Translations under genes and position numbers: made by a program
Notes under the pieces: generated by a model
What the model saw: the letters and a program-made list of their open reading frames with translations, nothing else
Told to the model about the DNA's origin: nothing
Database searches by the model: none
IMG/VR virus record: IMGVR_UViG_3300032307_000957
Direction: 5' to 3' (one strand)
Source: an uncultured virus (IMG/VR IMGVR_UViG_3300032307_000957)
Lineage: Duplodnaviria > Heunggongvirae > Uroviricota > Caudoviricetes
DNA length: 64,000 nt
In this document: positions 4,312 through 50,465 of the stretch, one piece after another
How the letters are laid out: each line of letters begins with the position of its first letter
Numbering within the stretch: the first letter of the stretch is position 1

Positions 4312-4329
4312 AAAAATAAAAGCAACGAT

Positions 4330-6542: not shown

Positions 6543-6543
6543 T

Positions 6544-7382: not shown

Positions 7383-7406
7383 TATATAATATTTTAGCAT
7401 ATTAAT

Positions 7407-7727: not shown

Positions 7728-7733
7728 GAAATA

Positions 7734-9100: not shown

Positions 9101-9101
9101 T

Positions 9102-9572: not shown

Positions 9573-9617
9573 ATATTTATCACCCCAAAGGGTGTTATTT
9601 AACAAAGGAGAAAAATA

Positions 9618-11457: not shown

Positions 11458-11485
11458 ATTTTTATGAAATATTAGGCATAGAAGT

Positions 11486-12109
11486 ATGTCAAATCTATTT
11501 AAGCATCCAAAATATATAAAACCAGAAAATAAACAAATGAAGGTTGCAGATGCCGTTGAGCATTTCAAAAAGGCATATACAAAATTTATGGGGGTTGAGC
11601 CAACAAAGATTGCTCTTTGCATGATTGCCTCTCAATCGATTTTAGAGACAGGTTGGTTCAAAGCAGGACTGTACTGCTACAACTTCGGCAACACAAAATG
11701 CAACCCCAACAAACTTGAAGATGGAGAGTATTTCACAATGTTTCGTTGCTCCGAAGTTCTTAATGGAAAGGAAGTGTTCTTTGATCCTCCTCACTTTCAA
11801 ACAATCTTTCAAGCCTTCAAGTCACCAGAGGATGGGGCAAGGCATCATATTAAATTCTTGGCAACCAGAGAAAGATACAGGGAAGCTTGGTCAAAAATTA
11901 TAAATCATAAACCTGAAGAATATATTTTAGAACTAAGTAAAGCCGGATATTTCACGGCAAATTATAATTTATATAATAGGGTTTTCTTATCTATATATAA
12001 AAAACTGTTACCAACAATAGATCAACCGGATGAAATTTTCGATGAAAAAGAAGCAGAAAATAATTTACGTTTAGTTTCGGTTTCGATTAATAAAAACTTA
12101 AAAATCTAA
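11486..12109 (+). CDS. GH73/FlgJ-like glucosaminidase
   Basis: SQSILETGW, YNFGN.K, FQAFKS, AGYFTA. Confidence 0.75.
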   Translation: MSNLFKHPKYIKPENKQMKVADAVEHFKKAYTKFMGVEPTKIALCMIASQSILETGWFKAGLYCYNFGNTKCNPNKLEDGEYFTMFRCSEVLNGKEVFFDPPHFQTIFQAFKSPEDGARHHIKFLATRERYREAWSKIINHKPEEYILELSKAGYFTANYNLYNRVFLSIYKKLLPTIDQPDEIFDEKEAENNLRLVSVSINKNLKI

Positions 12110-12721
12110 AAAGTAATCTTTTTTAAACGAACAAGTTTCTCTTGGTGAACAATTATATATTGTACATATTTTAATGGCATCTTCTTTTGTTATACATCCA
12201 GGATTGAAAGTCATTGATGGAAACATGAAAGAAATATCATAAATATGATCTAACCCAATGAAATGACCAAGCTCATGAAGGGTTGTTTTATAAAGATCAG
12301 CAGTTTCATTTTTGAAGAAAACTATGTCTTGTTTTGATTTCGACCAATTATTATAAGCAACCCAATCATTTTTACCAATTAACATTTCTTTTGAAAAGTG
12401 ATACATATCTTTTCTATCAATGTTCCATATAAAATTGATTCCTTGATCATTTTTTATAATATATTTAAATTGACCTGGTTTATTTTGTTTTGTAAAAATA
12501 ACAAAAGACAATTTACCATTAGAAGAATATTCTATGGTTTTAATTGCTGCAACGATATATTGTTCTTGATATTCACTAAAGTCTTTATCTATATAAATAG
12601 ACAAAGGTGAAATAATTTTTGGTTTATTTAGTTGGTATGGTAATTTTACTTCTTTTTTATAGCAAGAATTTCCAAGGAGTAAAACGGTAATTATTATGAG
12701 AATCAACTTAAATAAGCTCAT
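12098..12721 (-). CDS. Matrixin-like zinc metallopeptidase, putative lipoprotein
   Basis: HELGHFIGLDH plus Met-turn SFMFP; signal peptide ending LGNSC. Confidence 0.8.
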   Translation of the reverse strand: MSLFKLILIIITVLLLGNSCYKKEVKLPYQLNKPKIISPLSIYIDKDFSEYQEQYIVAAIKTIEYSSNGKLSFVIFTKQNKPGQFKYIIKNDQGINFIWNIDRKDMYHFSKEMLIGKNDWVAYNNWSKSKQDIVFFKNETADLYKTTLHELGHFIGLDHIYDISFMFPSMTFNPGCITKEDAIKICTIYNCSPRETCSFKKDYFLDF

Positions 12722-12751
12722 AATAATATATCATGTTATTATCCGTAATAA

Positions 12752-13243
12752 TTATGTTATTATTTGTGACATTATTGAATTTCCTATATAATCATTTTCC
12801 TCTAAAATATTTATAATGGATAAATATTCTTCATATAAATATTTTTTTGTATTGGATAATTTTTTAATTATAGTGTATTTTTCTTTCCAAAAACTAAATA
12901 AGTATCTTATTTCTTCTTCAGTTAAGCTGTTATATATTTTGAAATAATAATCTTTATTTTTATATTTTATTTTTATTGATTTTTGCGGGTCAAAATCATA
13001 ATATGGGTAAGCTGGTTTAATAAAAATATTTGGATTAACATAATCTTCAAAACTTAAAAAACTTCTTTTAACGGGATTTTTTCCATTAATAAATTCAATA
13101 TTATCACAAAAACCAAAAAGACTTCCTTCATTATCTTCTTTTAATTTTGTTAAAATTGATTTTTTAATATCAATATCTTCATTTATTTCAACAAAAGAAA
13201 CTTTTGTTGTTTTTTGCGTCCATTTTTGGAAAAGTGCGTACAT
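12752..13243 (-). CDS. Hypothetical protein (tail variant MSQIIT)
   Basis: ORF in array. Confidence 0.65.
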   Translation of the reverse strand: MYALFQKWTQKTTKVSFVEINEDIDIKKSILTKLKEDNEGSLFGFCDNIEFINGKNPVKRSFLSFEDYVNPNIFIKPAYPYYDFDPQKSIKIKYKNKDYYFKIYNSLTEEEIRYLFSFWKEKYTIIKKLSNTKKYLYEEYLSIINILEENDYIGNSIMSQIIT

Positions 13244-13545
13244 TATATTATTTCCTTTAAGGTTTTTATTTCTTCTTTAGTTTTTTTTGAAATATCTTCA
13301 TTACATACTAATGAAAATATGTTTATTTTATTTATATTTTTTTTAATAAATTCTTCTGATAATTTTTGAGACAAAGAAATATTGATCCAATCAACTTTAT
13401 ATGAATATTTTTCTATAAATTCTTCTGATAGATTTTGGTAAGAAGAAATCCATCGCCAATCCCATTGGTCAAATAAATTAATATTATTTTCCAATTCTTT
13501 TTCCGAATATTTTTTACACATTAAATGCAAATTGTGCTTAGTCAT
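13243..13545 (-). CDS. Trp-repeat protein (KEII tail)
   Basis: Repeat motif; TLKEII. Confidence 0.85.
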   Translation of the reverse strand: MTKHNLHLMCKKYSEKELENNINLFDQWDWRWISSYQNLSEEFIEKYSYKVDWINISLSQKLSEEFIKKNINKINIFSLVCNEDISKKTKEEIKTLKEII

Positions 13546-14126
13546 ATAATTTCCTTTAAAGTTTCAATTTCTTTTTTAATTTTTTCTTTTAAATTTTCTG
13601 AAATATTTTTATTTTGCATTAAACAATCAATATTAATTTTATTAAAATATTTCATTATAAATTTTTCTGAAAGATTTTGATATCTAGAAATGAGATGCCA
13701 ATTAAGTTGATTGGAGTGTTTTTCTATAAACTTTTCTGATAATTTTTTATTACAAATAACAAAAGGAATATCCAATTTATTTAAATATTTTTCTATAAAT
13801 TTTTCAGATAAATTTTGATGCTTTGAAATCCAACCCCAATGAAGTTTATCTGAATGCTTCTCTATAAAATTTTCAGATAAATTTTGATATTGAGAAATAT
13901 AATACCAACTAATTTTATCTTGGTGTTTTTCAATAAATGATTCCGATAATTTTTGACTCCTTGAAATGTAGGCCCAATCAATTTTATCTAGATATTTCTC
14001 TATAAATGACTCTGATAATTTTTGATATGCAGAAATTAAAATCCAATCTTTTGAATCAAATAAATTAATATTTTTTTCTAATGTTTTCTCTGAATATTTT
14101 TTAGCAACCAGATCAATTTTATTCAT
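13542..14126 (-). CDS. Trp-repeat protein (KEII tail)
   Basis: About 6 repeats; TLKEII. Confidence 0.85.
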   Translation of the reverse strand: MNKIDLVAKKYSEKTLEKNINLFDSKDWILISAYQKLSESFIEKYLDKIDWAYISRSQKLSESFIEKHQDKISWYYISQYQNLSENFIEKHSDKLHWGWISKHQNLSEKFIEKYLNKLDIPFVICNKKLSEKFIEKHSNQLNWHLISRYQNLSEKFIMKYFNKINIDCLMQNKNISENLKEKIKKEIETLKEII

Positions 14127-14512
14127 ATAATTTCTTTCAATAAATCAATTTCTTTTTTAATTTCCTCAAAAAATGATCTTGAAATATATGGGTTATAGTT
14201 CATATTTTGAATTTCGATTTTTCTTATGTTTTTCTTTATAAAAGATTTTGATAAGTCTTGAGATTCGCTAATAATTTCCCAACAAACTACATCTGAATAT
14301 TTCTCTATAAATGATTCAGATAAAACCTGATAACCAGATATCGCATCCCAATCTAACTTATCTTGATATTTTTCCATGAATGATTCCGATAGGTCTTGAT
14401 AATAACAAATTTTCGACCAATCCTCTGTATTGAATAAATTAATACTTTTTTCAAGATCTTCTTCTTGATATTTTTTACTTTCTAAAAAGAAGTTATGTAT
14501 TATCATATTCAT
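14123..14512 (-). CDS. Trp-repeat protein (KEII tail)
   Basis: Repeat motif; LLKEII. Confidence 0.85.
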   Translation of the reverse strand: MNMIIHNFFLESKKYQEEDLEKSINLFNTEDWSKICYYQDLSESFMEKYQDKLDWDAISGYQVLSESFIEKYSDVVCWEIISESQDLSKSFIKKNIRKIEIQNMNYNPYISRSFFEEIKKEIDLLKEII

Positions 14513-14811
14513 ATAATTTCTTTCAATATTTTTATTTCTTGTTTAATTTCTTTTGAAATATATCGATTTGCCATTAAGCTTCTAATATCAATTTTATTTA
14601 TATTTTTTCTTATAAATTCTTCAGATAAACATTGATATTCGCTTATACAATCCCACCACAGTTCATCTGAATAATCCTCTATAATTTTTTCAGATAAATT
14701 TTGAAACCTAGAAACGCTAAACCAATCAAATTCATTAAATGACTTGATGTTTTCTATTAATTCTTTTTCAGAATAATTATTTACTCTTAAATCTAAACTG
14801 TGCTTTTTCAT
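14509..14811 (-). CDS. Trp-repeat protein (KEII tail)
   Basis: Repeat motif; ILKEII. Confidence 0.85.
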   Translation of the reverse strand: MKKHSLDLRVNNYSEKELIENIKSFNEFDWFSVSRFQNLSEKIIEDYSDELWWDCISEYQCLSEEFIRKNINKIDIRSLMANRYISKEIKQEIKILKEII

Positions 14812-15116
14812 ATAATTTCTTTCAATGACTGAATTGCATTTATTTGTTTCAAAATGGATTTTTCATCAATTTCATTATCAAAAAGAATTGGGTAAAGATT
14901 AAAATATAAGGGAAAACAATGCATTTCAATGTAAGTTTTGCGATTTAAATAATCATTGTATTTTATAATGTATTTATTTTTATTTTCTACTAAAAATAAT
15001 AGATTATCGCTCCAATCATTATCTACATTTAGATTTCCAACTGAATCAAATGAGTTTGATAATACCCAATACCGTTTACAAAAAATATTTTCACCAACTA
15101 AAATATAATCATCCAT
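14808..15116 (-). CDS. Hypothetical protein (KEII tail)
   Basis: Ends SLKEII. Confidence 0.7.
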   Translation of the reverse strand: MDDYILVGENIFCKRYWVLSNSFDSVGNLNVDNDWSDNLLFLVENKNKYIIKYNDYLNRKTYIEMHCFPLYFNLYPILFDNEIDEKSILKQINAIQSLKEII

Positions 15117-15973
15117 TATACTGCCACTGGAACCTTTATCTTTGGAAGTGGATTATATCCAGCAACAACAAAATCGTCAAGTGAATAAGAAAAAATATCT
15201 TTTGCTTGATTTAAAATCAGCTTTGGAGAATCTGGAGATTCGTTTCTTGATAAATATTCTTCCACGGCTTCCATTTGGTTCATATAAATATGAGCATTAT
15301 GAATGTTATGAATTAATTTATATGGTTTATATCCTGTTTGTTGACAAAGCATATAAATAAAAGCAGAGTAGAAAAATACGTTAGCAGATACACCGGGCAA
15401 CCAATCTCCAGATCTTTGAGTTAAAATGCCGGTCATTCTATCTTTGCTATCTATATTAATATAGAAGTTAAAGTGACAAGGTGGAAGAGCTACCTTATCT
15501 GAACAAACATCTTTTGCATTCCATAAATCCATCATGATTCTTCTGGAGTTTTTGTTTGTTTTTAATTCATTTACAATATAAGATACTTGATCAAATCCAC
15601 CTGGGTTTGTTTTTCTTAATAAATAATCTCCACCTTGGTGTCTCATTTGAAACCCATAAATTGGACCAAGTTCACCATCAGAGTATCCGTTTTTTTCCTC
15701 AAAGTCTTTATTTTTCCAAGCTGACCAAATCTTTGAACCCATAGCCTCAAGATCATTGACGTTTGTTGACCCAGAAAGCATCCACAATAATTCCGAAAAA
15801 ATAGATTTATATGCGTATTGTCTTTTTGTTGGCAAAGGAAAATATTCCGATATATCGTAAGAACATTGAACTCCAGTTAATGATCTGCATATGATTCCAG
15901 TTCTTGTTTGGTTATCGTCACCATTTGCAACAATTTCTTTTAAAGTTTCATCGTAATCATTTAATATATACAT
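15116..15973 (-). CDS. thyA: Thymidylate synthase
   Basis: RTG, ELLWMLSG, LGPIYGFQ, SRR, ALPPCH, QRSGD, AHIY motifs. Confidence 0.95.
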   Translation of the reverse strand: MYILNDYDETLKEIVANGDDNQTRTGIICRSLTGVQCSYDISEYFPLPTKRQYAYKSIFSELLWMLSGSTNVNDLEAMGSKIWSAWKNKDFEEKNGYSDGELGPIYGFQMRHQGGDYLLRKTNPGGFDQVSYIVNELKTNKNSRRIMMDLWNAKDVCSDKVALPPCHFNFYINIDSKDRMTGILTQRSGDWLPGVSANVFFYSAFIYMLCQQTGYKPYKLIHNIHNAHIYMNQMEAVEEYLSRNESPDSPKLILNQAKDIFSYSLDDFVVAGYNPLPKIKVPVAV

Positions 15974-16521
15974 TATAATATTATATCCTTCATTGAAATA
16001 TCGTCATCAGTTAATCCACAATATATTCTGTGAATATATAGTTTTCCATCAAAATCTTTTAAATGTGACCTTCTAAGTGGTGCGTATAAAGAACTTGTGT
16101 CGTAAAAATAATTTCTCATTTCTCCATTTTTACTTTTATGCTTATAATAAACAACATAAGATGTTGATTTGTTTTGATCAAAACTTGGAATGCCTTCCTT
16201 ATTATAAAGGCCACCTTCATTTACATAAAAATCAAAAGCATAACTTCCCCAAGGAACATTATTTGTACCACAAGCCGTACATTCATAAGTATCTCTTATT
16301 AACTCTAAATTGTTATTAGAAAGAAATTCTTGATACAATGGAGAATCGTTTCTTTTTGATCTAAGATAATATTTGTTATTATTTTTAATTAACCTATGTT
16401 CGTTGCATAATTTTACATTTTTTCTTAAAACAGTACATTCCTCGTAAGCTCTAGAATTTTTAACACCACATTTTGTACAAAAATTACATTTAACACCGTC
16501 AATTAACCAACTATGCTTCAT
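15973..16521 (-). CDS. Cys-rich hypothetical protein (tail MKDIIL)
   Basis: CxxC pairs; similar to 16562-16951. Confidence 0.7.
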   Translation of the reverse strand: MKHSWLIDGVKCNFCTKCGVKNSRAYEECTVLRKNVKLCNEHRLIKNNNKYYLRSKRNDSPLYQEFLSNNNLELIRDTYECTACGTNNVPWGSYAFDFYVNEGGLYNKEGIPSFDQNKSTSYVVYYKHKSKNGEMRNYFYDTSSLYAPLRRSHLKDFDGKLYIHRIYCGLTDDDISMKDIIL

Positions 16522-16561
16522 AAAAATATGATATAGTGGTACTTTACTCTCTCGACTAGAA

Positions 16562-16951
16562 TTACAATATAATATCTTTAATAGTGGCGTCGTCTTTTGA
16601 ATACATGCAGATTAAAGGGAATTTATCATCACTGTTAAATTTTGTTGTATAAAATCTATTTGTAACCCTATCTTCCTTTTGCTCTTTATAATAAACAAAA
16701 GGTATGTTATCAAGAGTATTCATTGTTTGTGTATTAAAAAATACACAATTACATTTTTTGCACTCAAAAGTATCTGGGCTAATATCGTGAAGATAATCTT
16801 CTATATTTTCTATTGATGAAATTTGTTTGTAGCTAAAATTAATAAAACAACCGTATCTTGTATTGCTGGGAGCGCTGCATTTTATGCAAAAATTATACCA
16901 AACACCATTATAATTAAAAACGTGTCCATTTTTTTCTTTATCTTTTTTCAT
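16562..16951 (-). CDS. Cys-rich hypothetical protein (tail IKDIIL)
   Basis: NFCxKC and xEC motifs shared with 15973-16521. Confidence 0.7.
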   Translation of the reverse strand: MKKDKEKNGHVFNYNGVWYNFCIKCSAPSNTRYGCFINFSYKQISSIENIEDYLHDISPDTFECKKCNCVFFNTQTMNTLDNIPFVYYKEQKEDRVTNRFYTTKFNSDDKFPLICMYSKDDATIKDIIL

Positions 16952-17223
16952 GAAATTATATCTTTTAAGCTTTTTATTTTATTAATTTCTTCTTGTAATT
17001 TTGAGAAGTCCGTTCCTAAAGGGAAATATTTAAATGTCATTGAAAATGAATTATAAAGTTTTTGAGAGCTGATTATATCTTCCTCTTCAATAAGAAATTG
17101 TTCATTTAAATTATAGGAAGGTATGAATTTTTCCGGAATATATCTTATAATATTAAAACCAGGATTATAAGCTATATGAATGTCATCTTTTGAATCGTAT
17201 GTTATTGCGTATATTTGTTTCAT
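16948..17223 (-). CDS. Hypothetical protein (tail LKDIIS)
   Basis: ORF in array. Confidence 0.7.
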   Translation of the reverse strand: MKQIYAITYDSKDDIHIAYNPGFNIIRYIPEKFIPSYNLNEQFLIEEEDIISSQKLYNSFSMTFKYFPLGTDFSKLQEEINKIKSLKDIIS

Positions 17224-17534
17224 ATAATTTCTTTTAAAGTTTCAATTTCTTTTTTTATTTTATATTTTAAATCTCCTGATAAGTTTTTGTTTCTCATTAA
17301 GCAATTTATATTTATTTTATTTATGTGTTTTCTTATGAATTCTTCAGATAAATTTTGATATTTAGAAATCCATTTCCAATATAATTTATCTGAATGTTTT
17401 TCTATGAAAGATTCAGATAATTTTTGCCAAAAAGAAATACAATACCAATCATCATTATTAAATAAATGACAATTATCTTTCAACTCTTTTTCAGAATATT
17501 TTATTATTCTTAAATCTAAATTATGTTTTTTCAT
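17220..17534 (-). CDS. Trp-repeat protein (KEII tail)
   Basis: Repeat motif. Confidence 0.85.
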   Translation of the reverse strand: MKKHNLDLRIIKYSEKELKDNCHLFNNDDWYCISFWQKLSESFIEKHSDKLYWKWISKYQNLSEEFIRKHINKININCLMRNKNLSGDLKYKIKKEIETLKEII

Positions 17535-17546
17535 ATAATTATTATT

Positions 17547-17834
17547 TTAAGTTATTATATCGTTTAAAGTTAAAAAGTTTTCTACTTCCGATTGTATATT
17601 ATTGAATTCATTTATTTTCAAGCAAAAAACTTTATTATGTTCGGTATGATAAATGAAGCCACTTGCAAAATTCATTAAAAATTCAACCTCATCATCTTCG
17701 CAAGTATAATGATATTTTATGTATTCAGGATCTAAAAATACATCACCATCAAAATGAATTCTATCCCAATTAGTACAAAGCAAAAGAGTTGAAAATATAT
17801 TATCACCTTTATATATAATAATGTTATCTTTCAT
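17547..17834 (-). CDS. Hypothetical protein (tail LNDIIT)
   Basis: ORF in array. Confidence 0.7.
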   Translation of the reverse strand: MKDNIIIYKGDNIFSTLLLCTNWDRIHFDGDVFLDPEYIKYHYTCEDDEVEFLMNFASGFIYHTEHNKVFCLKINEFNNIQSEVENFLTLNDIIT

Positions 17835-18130
17835 ATTATTTCTTTTAAAGTATTTATTTCGTTTTTAATTTCTTCGGAAATATTTTTATTGTAAATTAAA
17901 CATTTGAAATTAATTTTATTAATATGTTTTCTTATAAATGTTTCACTTAAATATTGAAAATAAGATATTTGATCCCAATCAACTTTATCTGAATATTTTT
18001 CTATAAAATTATCTGTCAAATATTGATAAGTAGAAATTTTTACCCAGTCCCAATCATCAAAGAAAATAATATTTTCTTCTATTTCTTTAATAGAATATCT
18101 ATTAATTACTAAATCTAAATTATGCTTCAT
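17831..18130 (-). CDS. Trp-repeat protein (KEII tail)
   Basis: Start set at MKHNLDL (ATGA overlap). Confidence 0.85.
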   Translation of the reverse strand: MKHNLDLVINRYSIKEIEENIIFFDDWDWVKISTYQYLTDNFIEKYSDKVDWDQISYFQYLSETFIRKHINKINFKCLIYNKNISEEIKNEINTLKEII

Positions 18131-18441
18131 ATAATTTCCATTAAACAAAATATTTCTTCAATTTCTTTTTTAAGATTTTCTAAATAATTTTGTGGTTCAT
18201 AATTAATATAAAAAATACCACCAATATCATTAAATAATATTTCATCTTCTTCAAATAAATAACCATATGGAAAGTTAATTTTTTCTGACATTTTAAATTC
18301 CATATTATAAAATAACGTCTTTAGACTGCTAAATTTGACGCTGAAATTCCCAATTGGACCTATATTTGATATAAATTGCAATTCGTAAAATGAATCATAA
18401 TGTTTATCCAAATAAATTATAAACTTTAAATTATTTCGCAT
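18127..18441 (-). CDS. Hypothetical protein (tail CLMEII)
   Basis: ORF in array; start uncertain. Confidence 0.65.
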   Translation of the reverse strand: MRNNLKFIIYLDKHYDSFYELQFISNIGPIGNFSVKFSSLKTLFYNMEFKMSEKINFPYGYLFEEDEILFNDIGGIFYINYEPQNYLENLKKEIEEIFCLMEII

Positions 18442-18707
18442 ATTAAATTCAATTCTTTTATTATATTCCAAACTTCTTTTGCGGTTGTAAATTCAATTGT
18501 TAAATAGCTGCATTCATCAATTTTGTATATCTTACCTATATTATAACCTACTGCCAAAGATTCTTTGCTATAAAACTTCACCCTATTATATTTAAGTAAA
18601 TTTTTAAACTCAGTAATGTTTTTTATTTGTTTAAAATCTGAAACGCCATACTTGTAACATACAATTTCCCAATAACCAAATTTATTCCTTAAACTCAAGA
18701 GTCTCAT
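18426..18707 (-). CDS. Hypothetical protein (tail LICEII)
   Basis: ORF in array. Confidence 0.7.
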   Translation of the reverse strand: MRLLSLRNKFGYWEIVCYKYGVSDFKQIKNITEFKNLLKYNRVKFYSKESLAVGYNIGKIYKIDECSYLTIEFTTAKEVWNIIKELNLICEII

Positions 18708-19336
18708 GATATGATTTCTTTTAATGTCCTTATTTTTTCAATATAATTCATTTCTCTTTTTATTTCTTTAAATAGTTTTTTTGTGTTTTTAATTGATTCG
18801 TCACATTCAAAATATATTGGAAATTTAATGGGATCAAAGGAGATAGAATAATCTACTTGCTCCTTCCAAGATGTATGATATTCATTTTTAAAAGAAAATC
18901 TAATATCACTATAGTTTTTATAAAAATTACTAAAAAACTCTTCTTCGTTCTCCCAATCTAAAATGCATGGATACTCTTTTCCGAATAAAGGGAAGGTATA
19001 AATATTTTCCTTGAAGTCATATATTAAAATAAAATATCTTTTCATATAATATCCTTTATTGTTTTTAATTTCTTCAAAAACGTAATCTATATCTTTTTCT
19101 TCTATTAAAAAATAATTATAATGATTTGGTAAGCTTTCTTTAATTTGTTCAAACTCATCTTTTGTCCAAAAATATATATTTTGTTTTTTAAATACTTTCT
19201 TTAAATCTTTTCTCCAAAATCCATCCATGACTTTATCATTAGCTCCCCACATACCATAATTATAATGAGCTTTAACTGACAAAATATAATCATATACAGT
19301 TTGCGTTCCATGTTCTGCCCAAAGTATATACTTCAT
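18704..19336 (-). CDS. Hypothetical protein, apparent frameshift fusion of two tailed genes
   Basis: Out-of-frame TIKDII-TGA/ATG junction at 19042-19066; ends LKEIIS. Confidence 0.65.
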   Translation of the reverse strand: MKYILWAEHGTQTVYDYILSVKAHYNYGMWGANDKVMDGFWRKDLKKVFKKQNIYFWTKDEFEQIKESLPNHYNYFLIEEKDIDYVFEEIKNNKGYYMKRYFILIYDFKENIYTFPLFGKEYPCILDWENEEEFFSNFYKNYSDIRFSFKNEYHTSWKEQVDYSISFDPIKFPIYFECDESIKNTKKLFKEIKREMNYIEKIRTLKEIIS

Positions 19337-21837
19337 ATTATATCATGTAAAGATAATATATTATATATTTCTTTTGAAAATTCATCTCTGAATCTAGAGT
19401 TGTTTTTAATGAATTCAAATTCTAAATATTCTTTTGATTTTGTTTTCTCATAAAACTTATGGCAATCTTTTACTTTTTGAATGAACTTGTTATTTTTAAT
19501 ATCAAAAAATCTGGAAGAAGTATAGCTGTTGTTTTTCAAAAGATAAACAATATCATCAGATCCAATATAGTAACGAATATAAGAAATCATATTATTTTTA
19601 ACCAATTATTTCCTTTAAATTACAAGCTTTACTGTACTCTTCCCAAAATAAATTAATATCATCAATAAACAATACGCATACTAAATTATCTTTCATTATA
19701 TGATTATTAATATATTTTTTACATTCTTGTATTGAAGTAAATCTTTTAGAATTTTTTTTGTGATATGAATAAAATAATTCAAAATATTCTAAAGAAAGGC
19801 AATCATCAATGACAATATAATATTCGCTCATATAATTTCTACTAGAAGTAATCTTCTTTTATATTCTTCCAAAACTTCTTCAAAATCACCATTCCAATCA
19901 ATTAAACTAATATCATCAAAAGAACCAATGCCAGTATTTTTAATAAAGAATTCTTCAGAGTAAAGTTCAACCTTTCCTTCTAAACACAATATTTTAAACT
20001 CTTTAGTTAAGAAAGTCATTTTAGATTCAAATTCATCTGGGTACATAAAAATTCGGTATTTTTTATTTAGATCTTTATTCCATTCGCTTACATATATTAC
20101 ACCATCTGGTAAATCACTGCTTTTTCTTGCCAAGTTAGTCATGAAATTATCTCCTGCAATAAACAAATCTCTTTCATTTCAGATATAATTGAATCCCAAT
20201 CACCATCTAAAACCAACCAATCTTGAATGCAACCAAACATATGCCAATGATTACCCAACTGATCTAGTTTGCAACTTCCATTTGGATTAAGATGATAGCC
20301 CTTTTCATGAGCGTCGTCAATAGCTTCTTTAAAAGATTGTAATTTTTGTTCATCACCTAATATTTTCATTAGTTCAGGATAATCAATTTCGTGAGAATAA
20401 TAGTTTTTAAAATAAACTATACTTAAACTATTATAACTTTTATCTTTAATTAATAACATCTTCATATTATTTCCGAAATGGTTATGAATTCTTGAATTGA
20501 ATCCCATGTTTTATTAGGTTCCATAACTTCAAAATAATAAAATAGTGAATTAGGATTATTAATCATTTCATATTCAATTACTTCTTGTGGAAACTCAAAA
20601 CGCTCTATCTTATCAAATAATCTCAAAAAACTATCCTTTTTACATAATTTTACATTTATAAAACCAAAATCCAAATTTAAAAAATAACCAACTTTAGTTT
20701 TTTCTAAAGCAAAATATTTTTTCATATAATTTCTTTCATTAATATTATGTTTTTTATATTTTTTTCTACATTATCATTTAATTCAATTAAAAAATAATCA
20801 TGGTTAAAAACTGGATCAGATAAAGATTTTTGAACAAACTCATCGCATTCAATTTCATTTAATATATAATCTTTTTCATTTAAATGAACTTTTTCTAAGG
20901 TTTCTTTTATATTTTCTACATCAAAGTCAATATCTCTATGTGCCGAAAAATAATCCTTAGAACATATTGTTGCATCTTTGTGTTCATAAGTAACATTATT
21001 TTTCTTAAGAATGGCCAACATTATATAATTCATATAATCTCCATCAATAAAATAAAACTATTCACAGAATCTTTAATGCTTTCAATTGCTTCATTTTTAT
21101 CAAATAAAACGTTTTCTATACCCATTTTTGTCAAAAGTTCCGTTACTTTATAAAAATCATTATCAATTAAGCTTACTCTTTTTATTATTGAGCAATTAAC
21201 TCCAGAATCCAAAAGCTTTAAATATTTCTCATCATTATTTGTGGCTAATCTAAAAAGTCCCTTATAAAAGTAAAACAAAATCATATTATGTCCTTAATAG
21301 TTAATATATCTTGTATATTTTTTATGGTAAAATCACATAATTTGATTGGTATTAATTTAATTTTTTTTGATTTTAGCAGGTTTATATTATAATCTAATGA
21401 TATCCAACTATCTATATCTTTTTCTTCAATTACAAATTTTTCTTTATTTTTAAAAACATAATTCATTGTATTTTGAAATCTTGTTGGTTCATTATGGTTA
21501 ATATCTATATCATCCCAAAATAAGTCACTAGTGCCGCAGATGGTTGTTATCAAACCTCTTTCTCCTTCATATATTCTCAAAATTAAATAATTCATATATT
21601 TTTATTGATTAACTATCATTCTATTATATCTCTTAATATGTATTTTTCTCGATATTCTTTCCACATTTCATCAACGTTATCATTAAATTCAATATAGAAA
21701 TGATGATTAGAGCAATTCTCGATCGGTTCAGTCATTTCGAAGCTATAATTTAAAAGGTAATATTTTAGCGCGTCATTAAAACAATCTTTGTTTAAATATA
21801 TAAGTTCATCACTAAGGCAAGGTATATATTTTTTCAT
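19333..21837 (-). other. Run of 9 small unrelated hypothetical genes, all with KEII-type tails (19333-19605, 19598-19831, 19828-20142, 20139-20465, 20462-20725, 20722-21033, 21030-21284, 21281-21595, 21616-21837)
   Basis: Tails LHDII, LKEIIG, LVEII, LQEIIS, ISEII, MKEII, LMEII, IKDII, LRDIIE; mostly ATGA overlaps. Confidence 0.75.
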
Positions 21838-34816: not shown

Positions 34817-35533
34817 GTGAATAAAGAGATAAAGAAACAAAGAGTTATAGATTACCGGAAAAAACTCAAGATAAAATGCGTTCAATATAAAGGTGGGAAA
34901 TGTCAATTGTGCGGTTATGATAAGTGCATGCGAGCACTTACATTTCATCATATAGATCCCACTCAAAAAGAATTCGGAATATCTTCCCGGTTAAGAAAGT
35001 GGGAGATAATAAAACAAGAGCTTGACAAGTGCCAGTTATTGTGTCAAAACTGTCATTGTGAAGTTCATGAATTAGAGTTCAATAAAGAATCCAATCTCCA
35101 ATTCTTAAAAGAAAAACGCATAGATAAAGAAAAAAACTCAACCGAAGTTAAATGTGAACAATGCGATAAGTTGTTCATAAAACCAAATTCAAAGTTAAAG
35201 AGGAGAAACTTTTGTTCGGTTGAATGTAAAAAGGGATTCTTTAATACATGGCCAAAAGATGAAGAGTTAATTGAACTATTTAAGTCATGCACAATAAAAG
35301 AAATAAGTGTATTGCTTGGTAAGGGAGAGAAACTTATTCTGAATAAAAGAACGGGATTCTTCAAAGATGGAAGATTAAAGAAGAAAAAGAAAGCTTTCAA
35401 TATAGTTTGGCCAGATGATAAAGAATTGGAAAACTTATTGAAAGAAAAGACTTATAAAGAAGTTTCGAAACATATAGGTGTATCGATTCATTCTTTGTTT
35501 AATAGAATAAAGAAAAGAAACATTCCGATTTAG
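34817..35533 (+). CDS. HNH endonuclease overlapping tRNA-Asn
   Basis: GGKCQLCGY, LTFHHIDP, ELDKCQLLCQNCH; C-terminal HTH-like segments. Confidence 0.85.
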   Translation: MNKEIKKQRVIDYRKKLKIKCVQYKGGKCQLCGYDKCMRALTFHHIDPTQKEFGISSRLRKWEIIKQELDKCQLLCQNCHCEVHELEFNKESNLQFLKEKRIDKEKNSTEVKCEQCDKLFIKPNSKLKRRNFCSVECKKGFFNTWPKDEELIELFKSCTIKEISVLLGKGEKLILNKRTGFFKDGRLKKKKKAFNIVWPDDKELENLLKEKTYKEVSKHIGVSIHSLFNRIKKRNIPI

Positions 35534-35598
35534 CTCAGAGGAAGAGCGGCAAACTGTTAATTTGCGGGTCCTAGGTTCGATCCCTAGAGTCGGAGCCA
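35524..35598 (+). tRNA. tRNA-Asn(GUU)
   Basis: Acceptor TCCGATT/AGTCGGA, anticodon arm GCAAA-CTGTTAA-TTTGC, GGTTCGA, encoded CCA. Confidence 0.9.
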
Positions 35599-36553: not shown

Positions 36554-36640
36554 GAGGGAATAATTGGGGGAGTACCGGCCCTGACTTCTAATCAGGTGTA
36601 CCGTAATTGGATTATGTGGGTTCGAATCCCTCCTTCCTCG
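36554..36640 (+). tRNA. Atypical tRNA-Arg(UCU) with long variable region
   Basis: CCTGA-CTTCTAA-TCAGG arm, GGGTTCGAATCCC T arm, irregular D arm. Confidence 0.6.
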
Positions 36641-37490: not shown

Positions 37491-37565
37491 GACGTATATC
37501 TTCTAACGGTAAGGATATGGAGAAACTAATTCCAAGATGTTGGTTCGAACCCAACTATACGTCCA
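37491..37565 (+). ncRNA. tRNA-like element with non-canonical anticodon loop
   Basis: GACGTATA/TATACGTC stem, GTTGG-TTCGAAC-CCAAC, loop AAACTAA lacks U33. Confidence 0.55.
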
Positions 37566-42406: not shown

Positions 42407-42810
42407 GGGCCCTTGGCGGAATTGGCAGACGCGACGGACTTCTAGGGTAAGAATGAGTAATTTTCATATACTTACCTAGCGGAGCTTCTCAATAGAAATA
42501 TTGAAGATAGAACTGGGAGAATTGCTGGGAAACCCTTAAGATATAGTTACCACAACATAATTGGAAACAATAAGTGTGAAGGTTTAAGAAAACTATATAT
42601 TGGGCAATCAGCAGCCGAGCCTCTTTGAAATGAGGAAGGTTCAGAGACTACTTGAGAATACAAGAATAAGTACCCGGCACCTTAACATATAAATATGAAG
42701 GTGATGATATAGTCCAGACCACAAATCATAAAATGATGTTTAAGAAATTAAATGTGGTAAGAAAATCCGTTGCCTTTACAGGCGTCCCGGTTCGACCCCG
42801 GGAGGGCCCA
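42407..42810 (+). tRNA. tRNA-Leu(UAA) split by a group I intron (exons 42407-42441 and 42762-42810)
   Basis: Joined exons give ACGGA-CTTAAAA-TCCGT and acceptor GGGCCCT/AGGGCCC-A. Confidence 0.9.
42442..42761 (+). mobile_element. Group I intron, 320 nt, no ORF
   Basis: Core AATTGCTGGGAAA, AATCAGCAG, GTTCAGAGACTA, GATATAGTCC; exon ends in U, intron ends in G. Confidence 0.9.
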
Positions 42811-44057: not shown

Positions 44058-44417
44058 ATGCACTTAACTCAAATATCATTGATAAGATTCAGAAATAGAT
44101 TGTTCAGAATCAATCAAAATTCTTGGCCATATACAAATATTTCCTTCATGGATAATTTGATTCGAGACATTTATTTCTTGAATCGAATTTCCGGAGCAAA
44201 TCTAAATTGTCGTCAATGGACAATTGATACAATTAGAAATTATGAAGTGAATAGATTGATTAGTAATGGCGAAAGATTCATTCAAAGATTTCTAGAATTG
44301 GAATCTGAATTGAATGCCGAATATGATTCTGCAAATTACAGAAATCGTGATGGTTCTATAGCTAATAGAATTAGAGATCATTATGGTGCATTACCATATA
44401 TGAATGAGGTTATATGA
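44058..44417 (+). CDS. Hypothetical protein
   Basis: AAGGA RBS; ends MNEVI. Confidence 0.65.
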   Translation: MHLTQISLIRFRNRLFRINQNSWPYTNISFMDNLIRDIYFLNRISGANLNCRQWTIDTIRNYEVNRLISNGERFIQRFLELESELNAEYDSANYRNRDGSIANRIRDHYGALPYMNEVI

Positions 44418-44938
44418 AAACTTTCACACAAAAACAAAACTTGATTCGTAAAGCTATTGATATAGCTTACGCGAAACATTCGAAACAAACAAGAAAAGCA
44501 TCAAGTGATCCATACATTAACCATCCAATCATGGTAAGTTACACGGTATCAAATTTCAAGAAGTCCAAGAATATTCATGAATTGATTATTGCGGCAATTC
44601 TTCATGATACATTGGAGGACACAAATTTGAAACCTGAGTATATCACGAAGCATTTTGGAAAACTTGTTTCATCTTTGGTATTCGAGTTGACGGATGATAA
44701 GGACAGAATCAAATCTGAAGGCAAGGTAGAGTATCAAAAAAGTAAGTGGGTTGGTTTGAGTTCTTATGGTTTGTATATCAAGTTGTGCGATAGATTGTGT
44801 AATGTTCTTGATAATCCAAAACCTGAATATAAATTGAACACAATTCAAATATTGAAACATTTGAAACAAAAGAGAAAATTAAGTGGATCGCACAAAGCGG
44901 TGATTGTTGAGATTGAGAAAGCGTGTGAAGGAATTTAA
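44414..44938 (+). CDS. HD-domain hydrolase, small alarmone hydrolase/Mesh1-like
   Basis: H..QTRK...PYINHP, AAILHDTLEDT, ELTDDK, IKLCDRLCN. Confidence 0.88.
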   Translation: MKTFTQKQNLIRKAIDIAYAKHSKQTRKASSDPYINHPIMVSYTVSNFKKSKNIHELIIAAILHDTLEDTNLKPEYITKHFGKLVSSLVFELTDDKDRIKSEGKVEYQKSKWVGLSSYGLYIKLCDRLCNVLDNPKPEYKLNTIQILKHLKQKRKLSGSHKAVIVEIEKACEGI

Positions 44939-45269: not shown

Positions 45270-46418
45270 ATGATTAGAAACCAGATTGATGAAGATTTTC
45301 ATCCGGACGATTGGCCGATTCCAAGAGAATGGGATTCATATTCAAAAGATGAGTTATTTTTTCTTGGGTTAAATGAAGCTAGAATTATGAAATATTGCGG
45401 AATGGGAGGAGAGAAAGAATCCAATTATTCCAAGGCGGAGTGGAAGTTTATTTTGGAGTGCAGGAAGATTGGCTTGAAGTTCTTTAAAAGACAGACCACA
45501 ATGGCTTTATATGGATTAAAATCATAAGAGGAAATGAGAGTTATTATGACTGATGATATGGATTTTAGTTGGCTTAGGTTTACAATCACAAAAACATCTG
45601 ACCCTAATCTTTCCAAATATTTAAGTGTTCCAATGAATTATTTCAAAATCAGAAAGTTGGTTAAAAAATCAATTGAAGATGGTTTTGATGATACTTCTGT
45701 GTTTTGCACTGACTTTCTTAGGGTATATATGGATATTCCTTTTATTTCAAAAGGAAAAAGGATTGACGAATCAATAGATAATGTTTATCTTAGTGAAGAA
45801 TTTTTTTATAAGCTAGGAAAAGATGATGAAAGCATCAAACATGATCTTGAATGCCTTGGAGGGGTTGATGGCGCTATCTTTATTTTGAAGGTCCTATGTG
45901 CAAAGGGGAATCCGCATACGCTATCAAGCGCAATTGAGTTTTTGCAAAAACTATAATTGTAAAAAAAAAGAATATTGGATTAAAATTATTCAATAAAAAA
46001 CAAAACTGAAAGATAAAACATGGGCACACGTTCAACAATTGCGGTTAAAGATGGGAATAATATCACTTGGGTTTATTGTCATTGGGATGGTTATTTAGAT
46101 CATAATGGCAAGCTGCTATTTGAAAATTATAATAGTAAAGAAAAGGCTCTCCAATTAGTTAGTCACGGGAATATGTCTTCACTTGGAAAAACAATTGGAG
46201 AAAAGATTGACTTTAACAAGGTTCCTCCTGACCATGAAGGGTGCATTTTTTATTGTAGAGATAGGGGTGAAAACCTTCAAATTCAAAAATGTTTTCTTGT
46301 GTATGAGATTGAAAAAGAAAAATACAATTATGTATTTGATTGCGGAGAGAATAGGTGGCTTTTCTTTATTGGGGAAAATCATCATAATTTGCAAGACTTA
46401 GAGTCGACCTTAAAGTAA
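45270..46418 (+). other. Three hypothetical genes (45270-45527, 45534-45956, 46020-46418)
   Basis: 46020 has MGTRS...YCHWDGY, a recurrent phage motif. Confidence 0.65.
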
Positions 46419-46457
46419 ATAAATTAAATTGTAAGCATATAACTTAACTTAAAATTC

Positions 46458-46818
46458 GGGACATTAGCTCAGTTGGTAGAGCTGCGGACTTTTGAAAAAA
46501 TAGAAGCGCATCATAGCAATATGGTGATGAAAATCTCGCTATATGCTGGAAACCCCTAAAGCTATTGGTACGTGTAAACGTAACAATTCAATAGATGTAA
46601 CAATGGGCAATCAGCAGGAAACTTTGAAAAAAGGCTCCTCAGAGACTTGTATAAGTAAAATTATACTTTATGAATGGTAACATTTGTAAACACGCGAGAC
46701 TCCCTTTATAGGGATGATGATATAGTCCAGACCACAACATTACAATAATGTAATGATTTATGAAAGTAAATGTGGTAAAGTAATCCGTAGGTCGTCCGTT
46801 CGAACCGGACATGTCCCA
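46458..46818 (+). tRNA. tRNA-Lys(UUU) split by a group I intron (exons 46458-46492 and 46781-46818)
   Basis: Joined exons give GCGGA-CTTTTAA-TCCGT and acceptor GGGACAT/ATGTCCC-A. Confidence 0.88.
46493..46780 (+). mobile_element. Group I intron, 288 nt, no ORF
   Basis: TATGCTGGAAA, AATCAGCAGG, CTCAGAGACT, GATATAGTCC; P1 CTTTT/AGAAG with U-G at 46492; terminal G. Confidence 0.88.
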
Positions 46819-46844
46819 CAAATATAAAAACGAAAGTTAAAAGA

Positions 46845-47090
46845 ATGATTCATAAAAAAAGAATTTTGGACATGAAACTTGGAATGATTCATGAGCCAAT
46901 AAATTCGGAAGAAAATATTCAATGGAATAAAGGAATCCGAGCTTGCATGGTTTCATACATTCAAGGATTGTTTCGAGATAAAGAAATTTCGATTGAAGAG
47001 TATCGAGAATTGGAAAAGATTATTCATGAAGAATATATTCCGAATAACGAACGAGGAATTGAATTGATGAATAATTTGAGGAAGAAGTAA
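46845..47090 (+). CDS. Hypothetical protein
   Basis: ORF. Confidence 0.6.
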   Translation: MIHKKRILDMKLGMIHEPINSEENIQWNKGIRACMVSYIQGLFRDKEISIEEYRELEKIIHEEYIPNNERGIELMNNLRKK

Positions 47091-48020: not shown

Positions 48021-48449
48021 ATGAAGAAAATTAAAAAAGCAATATTTTTGGATATTGACGGTGTGTTAAAACCATTTGGGCAAAAAGACTTAAGCAAAGT
48101 TTGCGTTAAAAATCTTCATGATGTTTTGGTTGCAACCGGAGCTTTTGTAATTATCAGCTCCGATTGGAGAATTGGTGGAATTGGAATCGGTTCGGACTTG
48201 CATAAAAAGCTATTGCAGGCTGATGGTGGTTCGATTTTTAATCGAATCATTGGCGCAACCGACATTAATGATAAATCCAGAAGAGATCAAATTAATGACT
48301 TCATGGTCAATAATGGAGATATTTTTGATATTGATCATAAGATTGTGGTTATTGATGATGATTCGGATGTTGGAGATATTGTTACAGCACCTTCGCTTGG
48401 ATTTACATCTGATTGTGCGGATAGAGTTTTGAAATGGCTTGAGGATTAA
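48021..48449 (+). CDS. HAD-superfamily phosphatase (RNA-repair-associated type)
   Basis: IFLDIDGVL, ISSDWR, VVIDDD. Confidence 0.8.
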   Translation: MKKIKKAIFLDIDGVLKPFGQKDLSKVCVKNLHDVLVATGAFVIISSDWRIGGIGIGSDLHKKLLQADGGSIFNRIIGATDINDKSRRDQINDFMVNNGDIFDIDHKIVVIDDDSDVGDIVTAPSLGFTSDCADRVLKWLED

Positions 48450-49647: not shown

Positions 49648-49721
49648 GGGCCTCTAACTCAATTGGTCAGAGTATTCCGCTCATAACGGAAAGGTTCTCG
49701 GTTCGAGCCCGAGGGGGCCCA
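49648..49721 (+). tRNA. tRNA-Ile2(CAU)
   Basis: GGGCCTC/GGGGCCC-A; TTCCG-CTCATAA-CGGAA; directly upstream of tilS. Confidence 0.9.
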
Positions 49722-49760
49722 CATTAATTAAATTTAAAACTTATAAACATTAATTTTATT

Positions 49761-50465
49761 ATGTCAAAAACAAAAAGTTCCCACCCAAAATCATTGAGAA
49801 AGACGGTTTCCGACAACCTTAAGAAAGCAAATGTTAAAGGTAAACATTTGCTTATTGGAGTTTCCGGAGGTTCGGATTCCATGGCTTTATTGCATGTTTT
49901 GTCGGGTTTAAGGGAGAGTCTAGGGTTTAGCTTGTCGGCCGTTGGAGTGCATCATGGTTTGCGGCCGGAAGCTCAATTAGAGCTTGACATAGCGTCAAAG
50001 CTGGCCGAGGAACGTTCCGTTGATTGGTATCAAAAAAACATCAAATTGGAACCCGGTGGTAACATTCAAGAGAGAGCAAGGGAAGCCAGATACTCTGCAA
50101 TTAGAGAATTGCAAGAAGAAATCAAAGCAGACTATATTGTAATGGCCCACCATATGGAGGACAGAGCTGAAACAATCTTAATGAGAATCATTAAGGGTTC
50201 TGTTTATCAAAATATTGAGAATGTTATGCCTCTTTTAACTGACCATGGTGTTTTAAGACCAATGATTACAGCTTATAAAAGAGATGTAGTGCTTCATATT
50301 GAGAGGAAACAAGTTCCTTATATGGATGATCCAAGTAACTTTTTAACCGAGAAGTATTTCAGAGTAAAAGTTCGTCAGGAATTGATTCCTTATCTTAAGG
50401 ATATTAATCCAAACATTATTGATGCAATGTGTAAACTTTCCGATTCTCTATCTAATATAAAGTAA
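49761..50465 (+). CDS. tilS: tRNA(Ile)-lysidine synthetase, catalytic domain only
   Basis: VSGGSDSMAL, VHHGLR, AREARY, AHHMEDRAET, RP, DDPSN. Confidence 0.93.
   Translation: MSKTKSSHPKSLRKTVSDNLKKANVKGKHLLIGVSGGSDSMALLHVLSGLRESLGFSLSAVGVHHGLRPEAQLELDIASKLAEERSVDWYQKNIKLEPGGNIQERAREARYSAIRELQEEIKADYIVMAHHMEDRAETILMRIIKGSVYQNIENVMPLLTDHGVLRPMITAYKRDVVLHIERKQVPYMDDPSNFLTEKYFRVKVRQELIPYLKDINPNIIDAMCKLSDSLSNIK

Follow-up and report, generated by a model that had tools for sequence, protein, structure and literature searches.

Can a phage tRNA gene be interrupted within its anticodon by a group I intron that still splices, and, if so, how did the intron come to lie there? The locus that raises these questions is at 46458–46818 of a 64,000-nucleotide (nt) stretch of an uncultured virus of the class Caudoviricetes (IMG/VR record IMGVR_UViG_3300032307_000957), hereafter the window. 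The window belongs to a large uncultivated phage that, according to PHROGs, carries NAD-salvage genes, genes for thymidylate synthase and dihydrofolate reductase, one for an endolysin and, in addition, dozens of small open reading frames (ORFs). The 361 nt of the locus consist of the two halves of a perfect tRNA cloverleaf with 288 nt between them. An earlier note on this DNA had proposed a tRNA-Lys(UUU) gene with a group I intron between positions 35 and 36, and the sequence, Rfam, ARAGORN and intronless genes bear this out, with splice sites 46492/46781. We consider the intron to be real and probably active, and put at roughly 0.87 the probability that it is a group I intron able to splice itself out of tRNA-Lys(UUU) and is a selfish but harmless passenger.

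The split tRNA-Lys(UUU) gene and its predicted splice junction

The gene comprises three parts:

46458–46492, plus strand: tRNA-Lys(UUU) exon 1, positions 1–35 (sequence GGGACAT...GCGGACUUU; ARAGORN on the spliced product)
46493–46780, plus strand: predicted group I intron, 288 nt (Rfam RF00028; minimum free energy (MFE) fold; ORF list)
46781–46818, plus strand: tRNA-Lys(UUU) exon 2, positions 36–73 (sequence UAAUCCGU...AUGUCCC-A)

Exon 1 contributes the 5' strand of the acceptor stem (GGGACAU, 46458–46464), the D arm (46467–46482), the 5' strand of the anticodon stem (GCGGA, 46484–46488) and the loop nucleotides C32, U33, U34 and U35. Exon 2, which encodes no CCA, contributes U36, A37 and A38, the 3' strand of the anticodon stem (UCCGU, 46784–46788), the T arm (46794–46810), the 3' strand of the acceptor stem (AUGUCCC, 46811–46817) and the discriminator A46818. 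The intron is located between the anticodon nucleotides U35 and U36, and joining the exons at 46492/46781 yields the 7-nt loop CUUUUAA with the anticodon UUU. Default ARAGORN overlooks the gene; given the product spliced in silico, it calls tRNA-Lys(ttt), with perfect stems.

The 46492/46781 combination is the only pair of sites that provides a U·G pair at position −1, a G at the end of the intron and a 7-nt loop. Six intronless tRNA-Lys loci in IMG/VR (L177–L182) are identical to the window gene over 30 nt of exon 1, after which the exon 2 sequence follows without interruption and completes the same anticodon arm, and the tRNA-Lys genes of Serratia phages match exon 1 at 90.7%. Contigs of four other metagenome runs were also compared; a 154-nt DNA contig from one of them (run X2) aligns to 46457–46492 and 46781–46819, skipping exactly 288 nt. 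This contig is an intronless tRNA-Lys of another genome and, being DNA, is not evidence of splicing. The site logic, the ARAGORN product, the intronless loci and the DNA contig, four independent lines, agree on 46492/46781 as the predicted junction.

The intervening sequence has the core of a group I intron

In a search of 701 nt, the Rfam model RF00028 (Intron_gpI) matches 46464–46751 with 52.1 bits, the gathering score being 50 (E = 2.6e-12). The 361-nt precursor folds with an MFE of −105.8 kcal/mol, compared with −76.5 ± 5.6 for 100 shuffled sequences, none of which is as stable (z = −5.22). Both the Rfam score and the MFE z-score are far beyond chance. Without any constraint, the MFE fold contains the acceptor stem, the anticodon stem formed over the intron and helices P1, P2, P3, P4, P5a/b, P6, P7.1, P7.2, P8 and P9, the pseudoknotted P7 being the sole intron helix that it does not recover, and all core helices, including the P3/P7 pseudoknot, can be written with standard pairs. 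The parts are listed below with their evidence, including a MAFFT alignment of 31 ORF-less introns that takes the core structure of the window intron as reference (alignment A2) and a separate alignment of 24 short relatives.

46489–46506, plus strand: P1, CUUU/U (46489–46493; the slash marks the splice site) paired with the internal guide AGAAG (46502–46506) (sequence; MFE fold)
46509–46526, plus strand: P2 hairpin (46509–46515/46520–46526) with a GCAA tetraloop (pairing; MFE fold; 7/7 pairs covary in alignment A2)
46534–46539, plus strand: P3 5' strand, UCUCGC, partner 46694–46699 (pairing; MFE fold; homologous helix compensatory at 6/6 pairs in the 24 relatives)
46544–46616, plus strand: P4 (46544–46549/46611–46616), P5 (46554–46556/46605–46607) and a P5a/P5b extension (46562–46594) (pairing; MFE fold)
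46617–46638, plus strand: P6, with a GAAA loop (Rfam alignment; MFE fold)
46642–46647, plus strand: P7 5' strand, G-A-GACU with a bulged A, partner 46724–46728, in a pseudoknot with P3 (5/5 pairs invariant in 31 family introns)
46649–46687, plus strand: two hairpins between P7 and the 3' strand of P3, P7.1/P7.2-like, the second with a GUAA loop (insertion in the Rfam alignment; MFE fold; alignment A2)
46694–46699, plus strand: P3 3' strand, GCGAGA (pairing; MFE fold)
46701–46714, plus strand: P8 hairpin (pairing; MFE fold; A>G at 46710 in relatives preserves the pair)
46716–46728, plus strand: J8/7 and P7 3' strand, part of a family-wide conserved 21-mer (motif scan; alignment A2)
46731–46776, plus strand: P9 three-way element, with P9 (46731–46735/46772–46776), P9a (46738–46755) and P9b (46757–46770, GAAA loop) (pairing; MFE fold)
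46780, plus strand: terminal G (omega G), last base ahead of the 3' splice site (sequence)

The sole wobble pair of P1, U46492·G46503, marks the 5' splice site; the pairing of CUUUU with AGAAG, the U-G splice pair at 46492 and the restored loop CUUUUAA are all where the earlier note had placed them. All classified members of the family have a G directly before the inferred 3' splice site, a feature that the classifying script itself required. P7 is presumed to be the guanosine-binding helix, and GNRA loops cap P2 and P9b. Two portions of the intron stand out from the core: the P5a/P5b extension at 46562–46594, which is lineage-specific and ends in a GUAA loop, and the P7.1/P7.2-like hairpins at 46649–46687, which are missing from most relatives in alignment A2. 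Hairpins of the P7.1/P7.2 type are typical of subgroup IA. The features that bear on subgroup IC3 are, on one side, the classical Leu 34/35 introns in the family, a BLAST match to an Arg(CCU) 36/37 intron and the GNRA loops of P2 and P9b and, on the other, the P7.1/P7.2-like hairpins of the Lys copy. By its score, its U·G wobble and terminal G, and its conserved P3–P8/P4–P6 core, the element is a predicted group I intron. The ORF list contains no sense-strand ORF longer than 45 amino acids (aa) within it.

Covariation and conservation in relatives

Across the 31 introns of alignment A2, 82.4% of the cells of the core structure are paired, versus 68.4% in shuffles, none of which (0/500) reaches this value, and 32–38% with slid partners. 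Many two-sided changes are seen in P2, P4 (99.5% paired, four covarying pairs) and P9b (97.4% paired, with 5/5 pairs covarying); P7 and P9 are invariant. For the 24 short relatives, RNAalifold independently predicts P2, P3, P4, P5, P8, P9, P9a and P9b, and compensatory changes are found in 23 of its 36 pairs, including all six of P3. The covariation in the family is strong.

Related phages from other studies retain the intron. A 1027-nt contig from run X2 spans 46002–46933 with the intron in place and differs from the window at 39 positions. Of the 35 differences listed, 31 lie upstream, in the ORF region 46043–46432, four in the intron and none in the exons, such that the Lys gene with its intron holds at most 8 of the 39. 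Two of the intron changes affect helices, 46524 G>A turning a G·U pair of P2 into A-U and 46710 A>G turning an A-U pair of P8 into G·U. The Lys intron is also present in a third study (runs X5 and X6). This distribution of changes fits selection on a working ribozyme.

Predicted splicing of the precursor

The chemistry would be that of standard group I introns, from which we infer the steps; the part that the anticodon stem plays in them and the passenger reading are inferred as well. Once the precursor is folded, C32–U35 of the anticodon loop and the first base of the intron would pair with the guide AGAAG to form P1, and a free guanosine held in P7 would attack the bond that follows U35 (46492) and that the U·G wobble marks. 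The terminal G46780 would then occupy the guanosine site, and U35 would attack before U36 (46781). Because P10 can have no more than about 2 base pairs (bp), it is mainly the anticodon stem GCGGA/UCCGU that would keep the exons together. The outcome would be the loop CUUUUAA, and RNase P and CCA addition would complete the tRNA.

Several points weigh against an active intron. Splicing is predicted here from DNA sequence; P1 is just 5 bp long and P10 about 2 bp; and the Rfam score lies 2 bits above the cut-off, the match going unreported when the 64-kb window or a 34-kb stretch is scanned, because of the Rfam speed filters. The additional P5a/b and P7.1/P7.2-like hairpins are missing from most relatives and could in principle disturb folding. 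Furthermore, P3 and P8 are only 36.8% and 72.7% paired in alignment A2, where they are mis-registered for the window sequence because of the insertion in the window intron; the support for these two helices was accordingly taken from the window's own pairs and the 24-sequence alignment.

A family of introns in phage and bacterial tRNA genes

Is a Lys intron of this kind a rarity? The earlier note, which gave Leu(UAA), fMet, Arg(CCU) and Ile(CAU) as the classical bacterial hosts, knew of no Lys example but did not rule one out. The window itself contains a second case:

42407–42810, plus strand: tRNA-Leu(UAA) gene with a group I intron, a sister case (Rfam 65 bits; ARAGORN with introns allowed; spliced product called tRNA-Leu(taa))

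The Leu intron is 320 nt long (42442–42761), occupies the classical site 34/35 and also carries an insertion between P7 and the 3' strand of P3; default ARAGORN overlooks this gene, too. The string GATATAGTCCAGACC is common to the Lys intron (46719–46733) and the Leu intron (42706–42720), and a shared 21-mer, which takes in J8/7, the 3' strand of P7 and the first part of P9, occurs exactly in 16 IMG/VR loci. By ARAGORN and by eye, the hosts of these 16 are Arg(UCU) (6), Leu(UAA) (5), Lys(UUU) (3) and a probable Leu(UAG) (1), with no tRNA found in the remaining one. The two strings that the earlier note had reported as shared by the Lys and Leu introns are indeed present in both, but as a sign of spread between the two window genes they prove nothing because they are conserved across the whole family, in Arg, Leu and Lys hosts alike.

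The survey for Lys introns that the earlier note proposed was run on IMG/VR with a 3'-junction pattern that combines the P9 element with xTAATC after it and thereby favours NNU anticodons; classification was tied to the P9 3' strand, a check of P1 and confirmation by ARAGORN. Among the 39 loci recovered, 23 are in tRNA-Lys(UUU), nine in Asn(GUU), with one more cut by the contig end, and two in Thr(UGU); four are unclassified. When both sets are pooled, there are 19 distinct phage tRNA-Lys(UUU) precursors besides that of the window, 12 with the intron at 34/35 and seven at 35/36. All 19 have the guide G that makes a wobble with the last exon U, and the guide tracks the site, being xGAG(U) when U34 wobbles and GAAG, GGAG or similar when U35 does. 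The host tRNAs of the family other than Lys are Leu, Arg, Asn and Thr.

Applied to one genome per bacterial species, the same pattern identified 52 genomes, of which 43 were classified:

Lys(UUU), site 34/35: 20 bacterial genomes, mostly Rhodothermales and other Bacteroidota, including several complete chromosomes
Arg(UCU), site 34/35: 17 bacterial genomes, from Chloroflexota, Desulfonema magnum and Salinibacter relatives
Lys(CUU), site 35/36: 5 bacterial genomes, from Christensenella, Acidobacteriota and an alphaproteobacterium
Ambiguous host tRNA: 1 bacterial genome

With 19 other phage Lys(UUU) genes and 20 Lys(UUU) and five Lys(CUU) bacterial genomes, the supposed rarity is not supported. 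BLAST against cultured phages, in turn, gave no full-length match to a Lys intron.

Some members of the family deserve separate mention. In many species of Rhodothermales and other Bacteroidota, the chromosomal tRNA-Lys(UUU) carries a 315–349-nt intron at 34/35 (bacterial loci L183–L234). Loci L030, L049 and L054 are three intron-bearing tRNA genes within 1.6 kb (about 56–1600) of one phage array: Arg(UCU) with 205 nt at 34/35, Leu(UAA) with 237 nt at 34/35, and Lys(UUU) with 198 nt at 35/36. A third insertion position of the family is found in the phage tRNA-Arg(UCU) genes L002–L004, L008, L009 and L015, where the intron lies between U33 and U34. L084, a phage tRNA-Lys(UUU) split at 34/35 as judged by eye, has the P3–P4 motif of the window intron and a different P9. 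This motif, CTATATGCTGGAAAC, is unspecific: at least 118 IMG/VR loci contain it, most of them introns of protein genes, and the only tRNA-Lys cases among the loci retrieved are L084 and L174.

Several picks of the classifying script were discarded by eye, namely 'tRNA-Stop' for L030, L049 and L054, 'Glu' for L047 and L055, 'Asn 33/34' for L035, L219 and L221, and 'Pyl' for L195 and L228. Left unclassified are L014 (by eye Leu(UAG)), L016 (no tRNA found), L020, L022 (contig end), L038, L047 and L055 (by eye Thr(UGU)-like), and nine of the 52 bacterial loci.

Mobility and origin of the Lys intron

Pfam shows no nuclease-family match among the ORFs flanking the Lys intron, and lacking an endonuclease ORF, this copy would no longer be mobile by homing. 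Its longer relatives are better equipped: among nine long members of the family (606–844 nt) that we examined, six have PD-(D/E)XK ORFs, one an HNH ORF (L013), one a LAGLIDADG ORF (L037) and one no recognisable ORF. The PD-(D/E)XK ORFs match PF11645 with E-values from 1e-18 to 1e-31 and are present in all five long Lys members (L007, L040, L042, L048 and L056) and in the Asn member L029. The ORF of L040 matches PDB 2ost ('Putative endonuclease') at E = 4e-6, an entry that we take to be I-Ssp6803I, the endonuclease of a tRNA-fMet intron.

A maximum-likelihood tree, built quickly for 66 introns from 216 columns and with long branches flagged, places the Lys intron in a 23-row clade, otherwise all Lys, with a support of 98 in the SH-like approximate likelihood-ratio test (SH-aLRT). 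In addition to the window Lys intron, this clade consists of the phage introns L006 and L012, one bacterial Lys(CUU) intron and 19 Lys(UUU) introns of Rhodothermales and other Bacteroidota. The Leu intron of the window is sister to the Lys clade (SH-aLRT 99), apart from three other Leu(UAA) introns. Over the whole tree, the host-tRNA label requires 15 changes by anticodon and 17 by anticodon and site, the minimum being 7.

Along its length, the Lys intron has different nearest relatives. The 5' two-thirds are nearest to other Lys introns (107/131 to L006 and 76/88 to Rhodothermales), whereas for the 3' third the best match is the co-resident Leu intron (61/66 aligned bases, versus 56/66 for the next best). 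The P9/P9b variant AAAUGUGG is present in both window introns and in none of the 29 other introns of alignment A2. Global pairwise identities among family introns are not discriminating. We read this as an intron of the Lys lineage whose 3' end was probably homogenised with the neighbouring Leu intron by gene conversion.

A different history, in line with the spread between tRNAs that the earlier note read from the shared strings, would make the Lys intron a recent transposition of the neighbouring tRNA-Leu(UAA) intron within this genome, or the reverse. The closeness of the 3' third, the P9/P9b variant that the two window introns alone share among the 31, and the branching of the Leu intron beside the Lys clade, not with the other three Leu(UAA) introns, are what such a transfer would leave, so that the idea of spread between tRNAs retains some footing even without the shared strings. 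However, the 5' two-thirds are closest to other Lys introns, the Lys intron lies inside a well-supported clade that is otherwise all Lys, and the two window genes show a mean column identity of just 72% over the whole alignment; conversion of the 3' end between co-resident introns would explain this pattern at least as well. We therefore regard a recent transposition as unlikely, though it is the most durable of the alternatives considered here.

Descent within the Lys lineage leaves the insertion site to be explained, given that 35/36 is used within a clade that mostly uses 34/35. L006 reads ...CUU/U...AAGAG...GGUAAG/UUAA and the window ...CUUU/U...AGAAG...GGUAAAG/UAA (slashes mark splice sites), which could be explained by a one-base slide within the U run with matched changes of the guide and of the terminal G. 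Alternatively, the 35/36 site might reflect descent from a Lys(CUU)-type intron, where a single G-to-A change in the guide would retarget it to UUU; such an origin would fit because 35/36 is the only possible site in CUU. The intron is best read as a passenger whose relatives carry homing endonuclease genes and have moved among tRNA isoacceptors. The present copy would be one that lost, or never had, an endonuclease gene; its site is one base 3' of 34/35, where Lys introns are more often found, and its guide is displaced to match.

Passenger, regulator or relic?

If the intron splices, it might also have been put to use, gating or timing the supply of tRNA-Lys(UUU) or shielding the gene or its precursor RNA from PrrC-like anticodon nucleases of the host or from nucleases of competing phages that target tRNA genes. 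The circumstantial arguments are that the window's copy of tRNA-Lys(UUU) depends on splicing; that an ORF with a HAD domain of the 'Swiss Army Knife' RNA-repair proteins (HAD_SAK_2, PF18143, E = 1.5e-12) lies 1.2 kb downstream, at 48021–48449, as the sole sign of RNA repair nearby; and that the endonucleases of relatives presumably cut intronless alleles. Yet nothing links the intron to any defense system, the mature tRNA would stay a nuclease target, and the family is no less common in ordinary tRNA genes on bacterial chromosomes. Its presence in chromosomal tRNA-Lys in the genomes of 20 bacterial species, and also in tRNAs for Leu, Arg, Asn and Thr, fits opportunistic spread. Nor is there an RNA ligase or kinase among the 129 window ORFs scanned against Pfam, the largest ORFs having been compared with PHROGs only. 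We consider co-option improbable, and the gated supply of a PrrC target, the benefit on which the earlier note speculated, finds no support.

Slightly less probable still is that the intron is a decayed relic that does not splice, the tRNA-Lys gene being a pseudogene. Decay would be in keeping with the marginal Rfam score, with the lineage-specific insertions at 46562–46594 and 46649–46687, which could disturb folding, and with the absence of an endonuclease ORF and hence immobility by homing, and the case for splicing is built on DNA. A relic, however, would not be expected to retain core helices, a U·G pair, a terminal G and J8/7 with P7 that are intact and match the family consensus, nor exons that form a perfect cloverleaf. 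In the X2 relative, moreover, gene and intron together have four listed differences (at most 8 of 39), versus 31 listed upstream, and two of the four keep helix pairs.

There is next to no chance that the splice sites lie elsewhere and that the product is another tRNA, such as Gln(UUG): ARAGORN with introns allowed does detect the gene and outputs tRNA-Gln(ttg) with i(39,286), but this call misplaces the intron and can be dismissed because the placement rule is meant for protein-spliced introns; it also ends the intron at U46781 and not at a G and leaves no U·G pair at the 5' splice site, and the 46492/46781 junction is seen in the intronless homologues and the DNA contig, besides the match of exon 1 to tRNA-Lys of Serratia phages.

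Relation to known introns

The most comprehensive point of comparison is the survey of Williams (2020; bioRxiv 10.1101/2020.01.27.920355), which mapped 5292 tRNA genes split by introns across 81,441 assemblies of bacteria and archaea and added 17 site classes to the 4 classical ones (Leu.3Ug, Arg.5Ug, fMet.2Ug and Ile2.5Ug, all of subgroup IC3), for a total of 21; in the literature searched, we found no paper citing it. Like the window intron, those of bacteria in that survey are small ribozymes inserted in the anticodon loop, with a U at −1 in the P1 wobble and a terminal G; in its notation, by our mapping, the window site is Lys.4Ug. In our scan of bacterial genomes, members of the window intron's family interrupt tRNA-Lys(UUU), Lys(CUU) and Arg(UCU) genes, and on this basis Lys is likely to be among the site classes of Williams (2020). 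The survey covered bacteria and archaea, not phages, whereas the window intron is that of a phage.

The cyanobacterial and plastid tRNA-Leu(UAA) intron, between U34 and A35, is an element of the same kind, with exons that pair in the anticodon stem, and L010, L017, L030 and the window Leu gene are split at the same site; the likeness is drawn through the family, not from a cyanobacterial copy. The window Lys intron differs in being in another tRNA, one base 3' (35/36), and in its extra P5a/b and P7.1/P7.2-like hairpins. The tRNA-fMet intron of Synechocystis comes with a PD-(D/E)XK endonuclease, presumably the enzyme named I-Ssp6803I, and the long Lys and Asn members of the family likewise carry PF11645 ORFs; unlike the Synechocystis intron, the window Lys intron has no endonuclease ORF inside or beside it.

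Among cultured phages, the DNA-polymerase intron of Thomasclavelia phages TR-TP1 and TR-TP2 is 82.7% identical to the window over 46540–46618, the P4–P5 region. Introns of phage protein genes interrupt ORFs, often carry HNH genes and are devoid of the P9 element of the tRNA family (ACCACA...UGUGGU). Two cultured phages have members of the same family by BLAST, at 71–77% identity, in host tRNAs other than Lys. In Agrobacterium phage Atu_ph07 (L176; MF403008.1, about 112890–113251), a tRNA-Leu(UAA) gene, called Leu(taa) by ARAGORN, contains a 278-nt intron; the gene is unannotated, and the coding sequence of a 'hypothetical protein', AUZ94936.1, overlaps its 3' end. In Microcoleus phage My-WqHQDG, a tRNA-Arg(CCU) with a 213-nt intron is annotated just as a 286-nt tRNA-Arg.

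In their passage on the subject, Hausner et al. (2014; PMC3984707) describe the phage introns then known as being all in protein-coding genes, despite the many tRNA genes of phages. A tRNA-Lys group I intron has been claimed by Mohanta (2017; PMC5733544), but what the relevant portion of that paper describes are insertions of 22–49 nt in cyanobacterial tRNAs, far too short for ribozymes, and we do not accept them as group I introns. In the literature that we searched, outside subscription journals, no genuine group I intron is described for tRNA-Lys or for a tRNA gene of any phage. The tRNAscan-SE authors, for their part, state in the text concerned that the tool was not designed for group I introns.

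The window Lys intron is thus a well-formed addition to the known bacterial tRNA group I introns, and the wider interest is in the phage reservoir. As against the 2014 view, dozens of phage tRNA genes have introns, sometimes three per 1.6-kb array. Tentatively, and with the odds somewhat against us, we suggest that the family has a major reservoir and shuttle, hitherto overlooked, in the tRNA arrays of phages, with hopping between isoacceptors (Lys, Asn, Thr, Arg and Leu), one-base sliding of the site within the UUU anticodon and transfer between phages and bacteria. Hopping would proceed by endonuclease-driven homing and/or by reverse splicing, for which any anticodon loop containing a U would serve, and passage between phages and bacteria may be reflected in the grouping of the window Lys intron with those in chromosomal tRNA-Lys genes of Rhodothermales and other Bacteroidota. 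Should this be true, the confinement of phage introns to protein-coding genes would be an annotation artefact. Because standard tools (ARAGORN by default, the Rfam filters and tRNAscan-SE) miss such genes, phage tRNA repertoires, and the codon-use inferences made from them, are undercounted. The link between phages and bacteria would offer a concrete route to the sporadic distribution of tRNA introns, and the natural pairs at 34/35 and 35/36 with their co-varying guides provide a tidy system for studying how a splice site is chosen and changed.

The tRNA array and other genes of the window

Megablast of positions 1–20000 of the window against INPHARED (50,697 phage records) gave no near match. 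According to ARAGORN and Rfam, a loose array of tRNA genes spans about 35–50 kb of the window. At its start, an HNH endonuclease ORF (34817–35533, PHROG E = 2e-23) overlaps tRNA-Asn(GUU) (35524–35598) by 10 nt and is possibly a free-standing homing endonuclease in the array. A weak tRNA at 36566–36640 scores 34.7 bits with Rfam and is not called by ARAGORN; conversely, a tRNA-Ser with the odd anticodon ACU at 37492–37564 is called by ARAGORN and not reported by Rfam. Besides the HAD_SAK_2 ORF mentioned above, the array encloses an ORF with an HD_4 domain (44414–44938; PF13328, E = 5e-11). A tRNA with the anticodon CAU (49648–49722) lies directly upstream of a 234-aa PP-loop ATPase ORF (49761–50465; PF01171, E = 8e-40), and together they look like a phage tRNA-Ile2 with its own TilS-like lysidine synthetase. 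Elsewhere in the window, an 80-aa ORF (8858–9100) resembles translation initiation factor IF-1 (PF01176, E = 2e-18), and a small heat-shock protein is encoded at 9618–9983.

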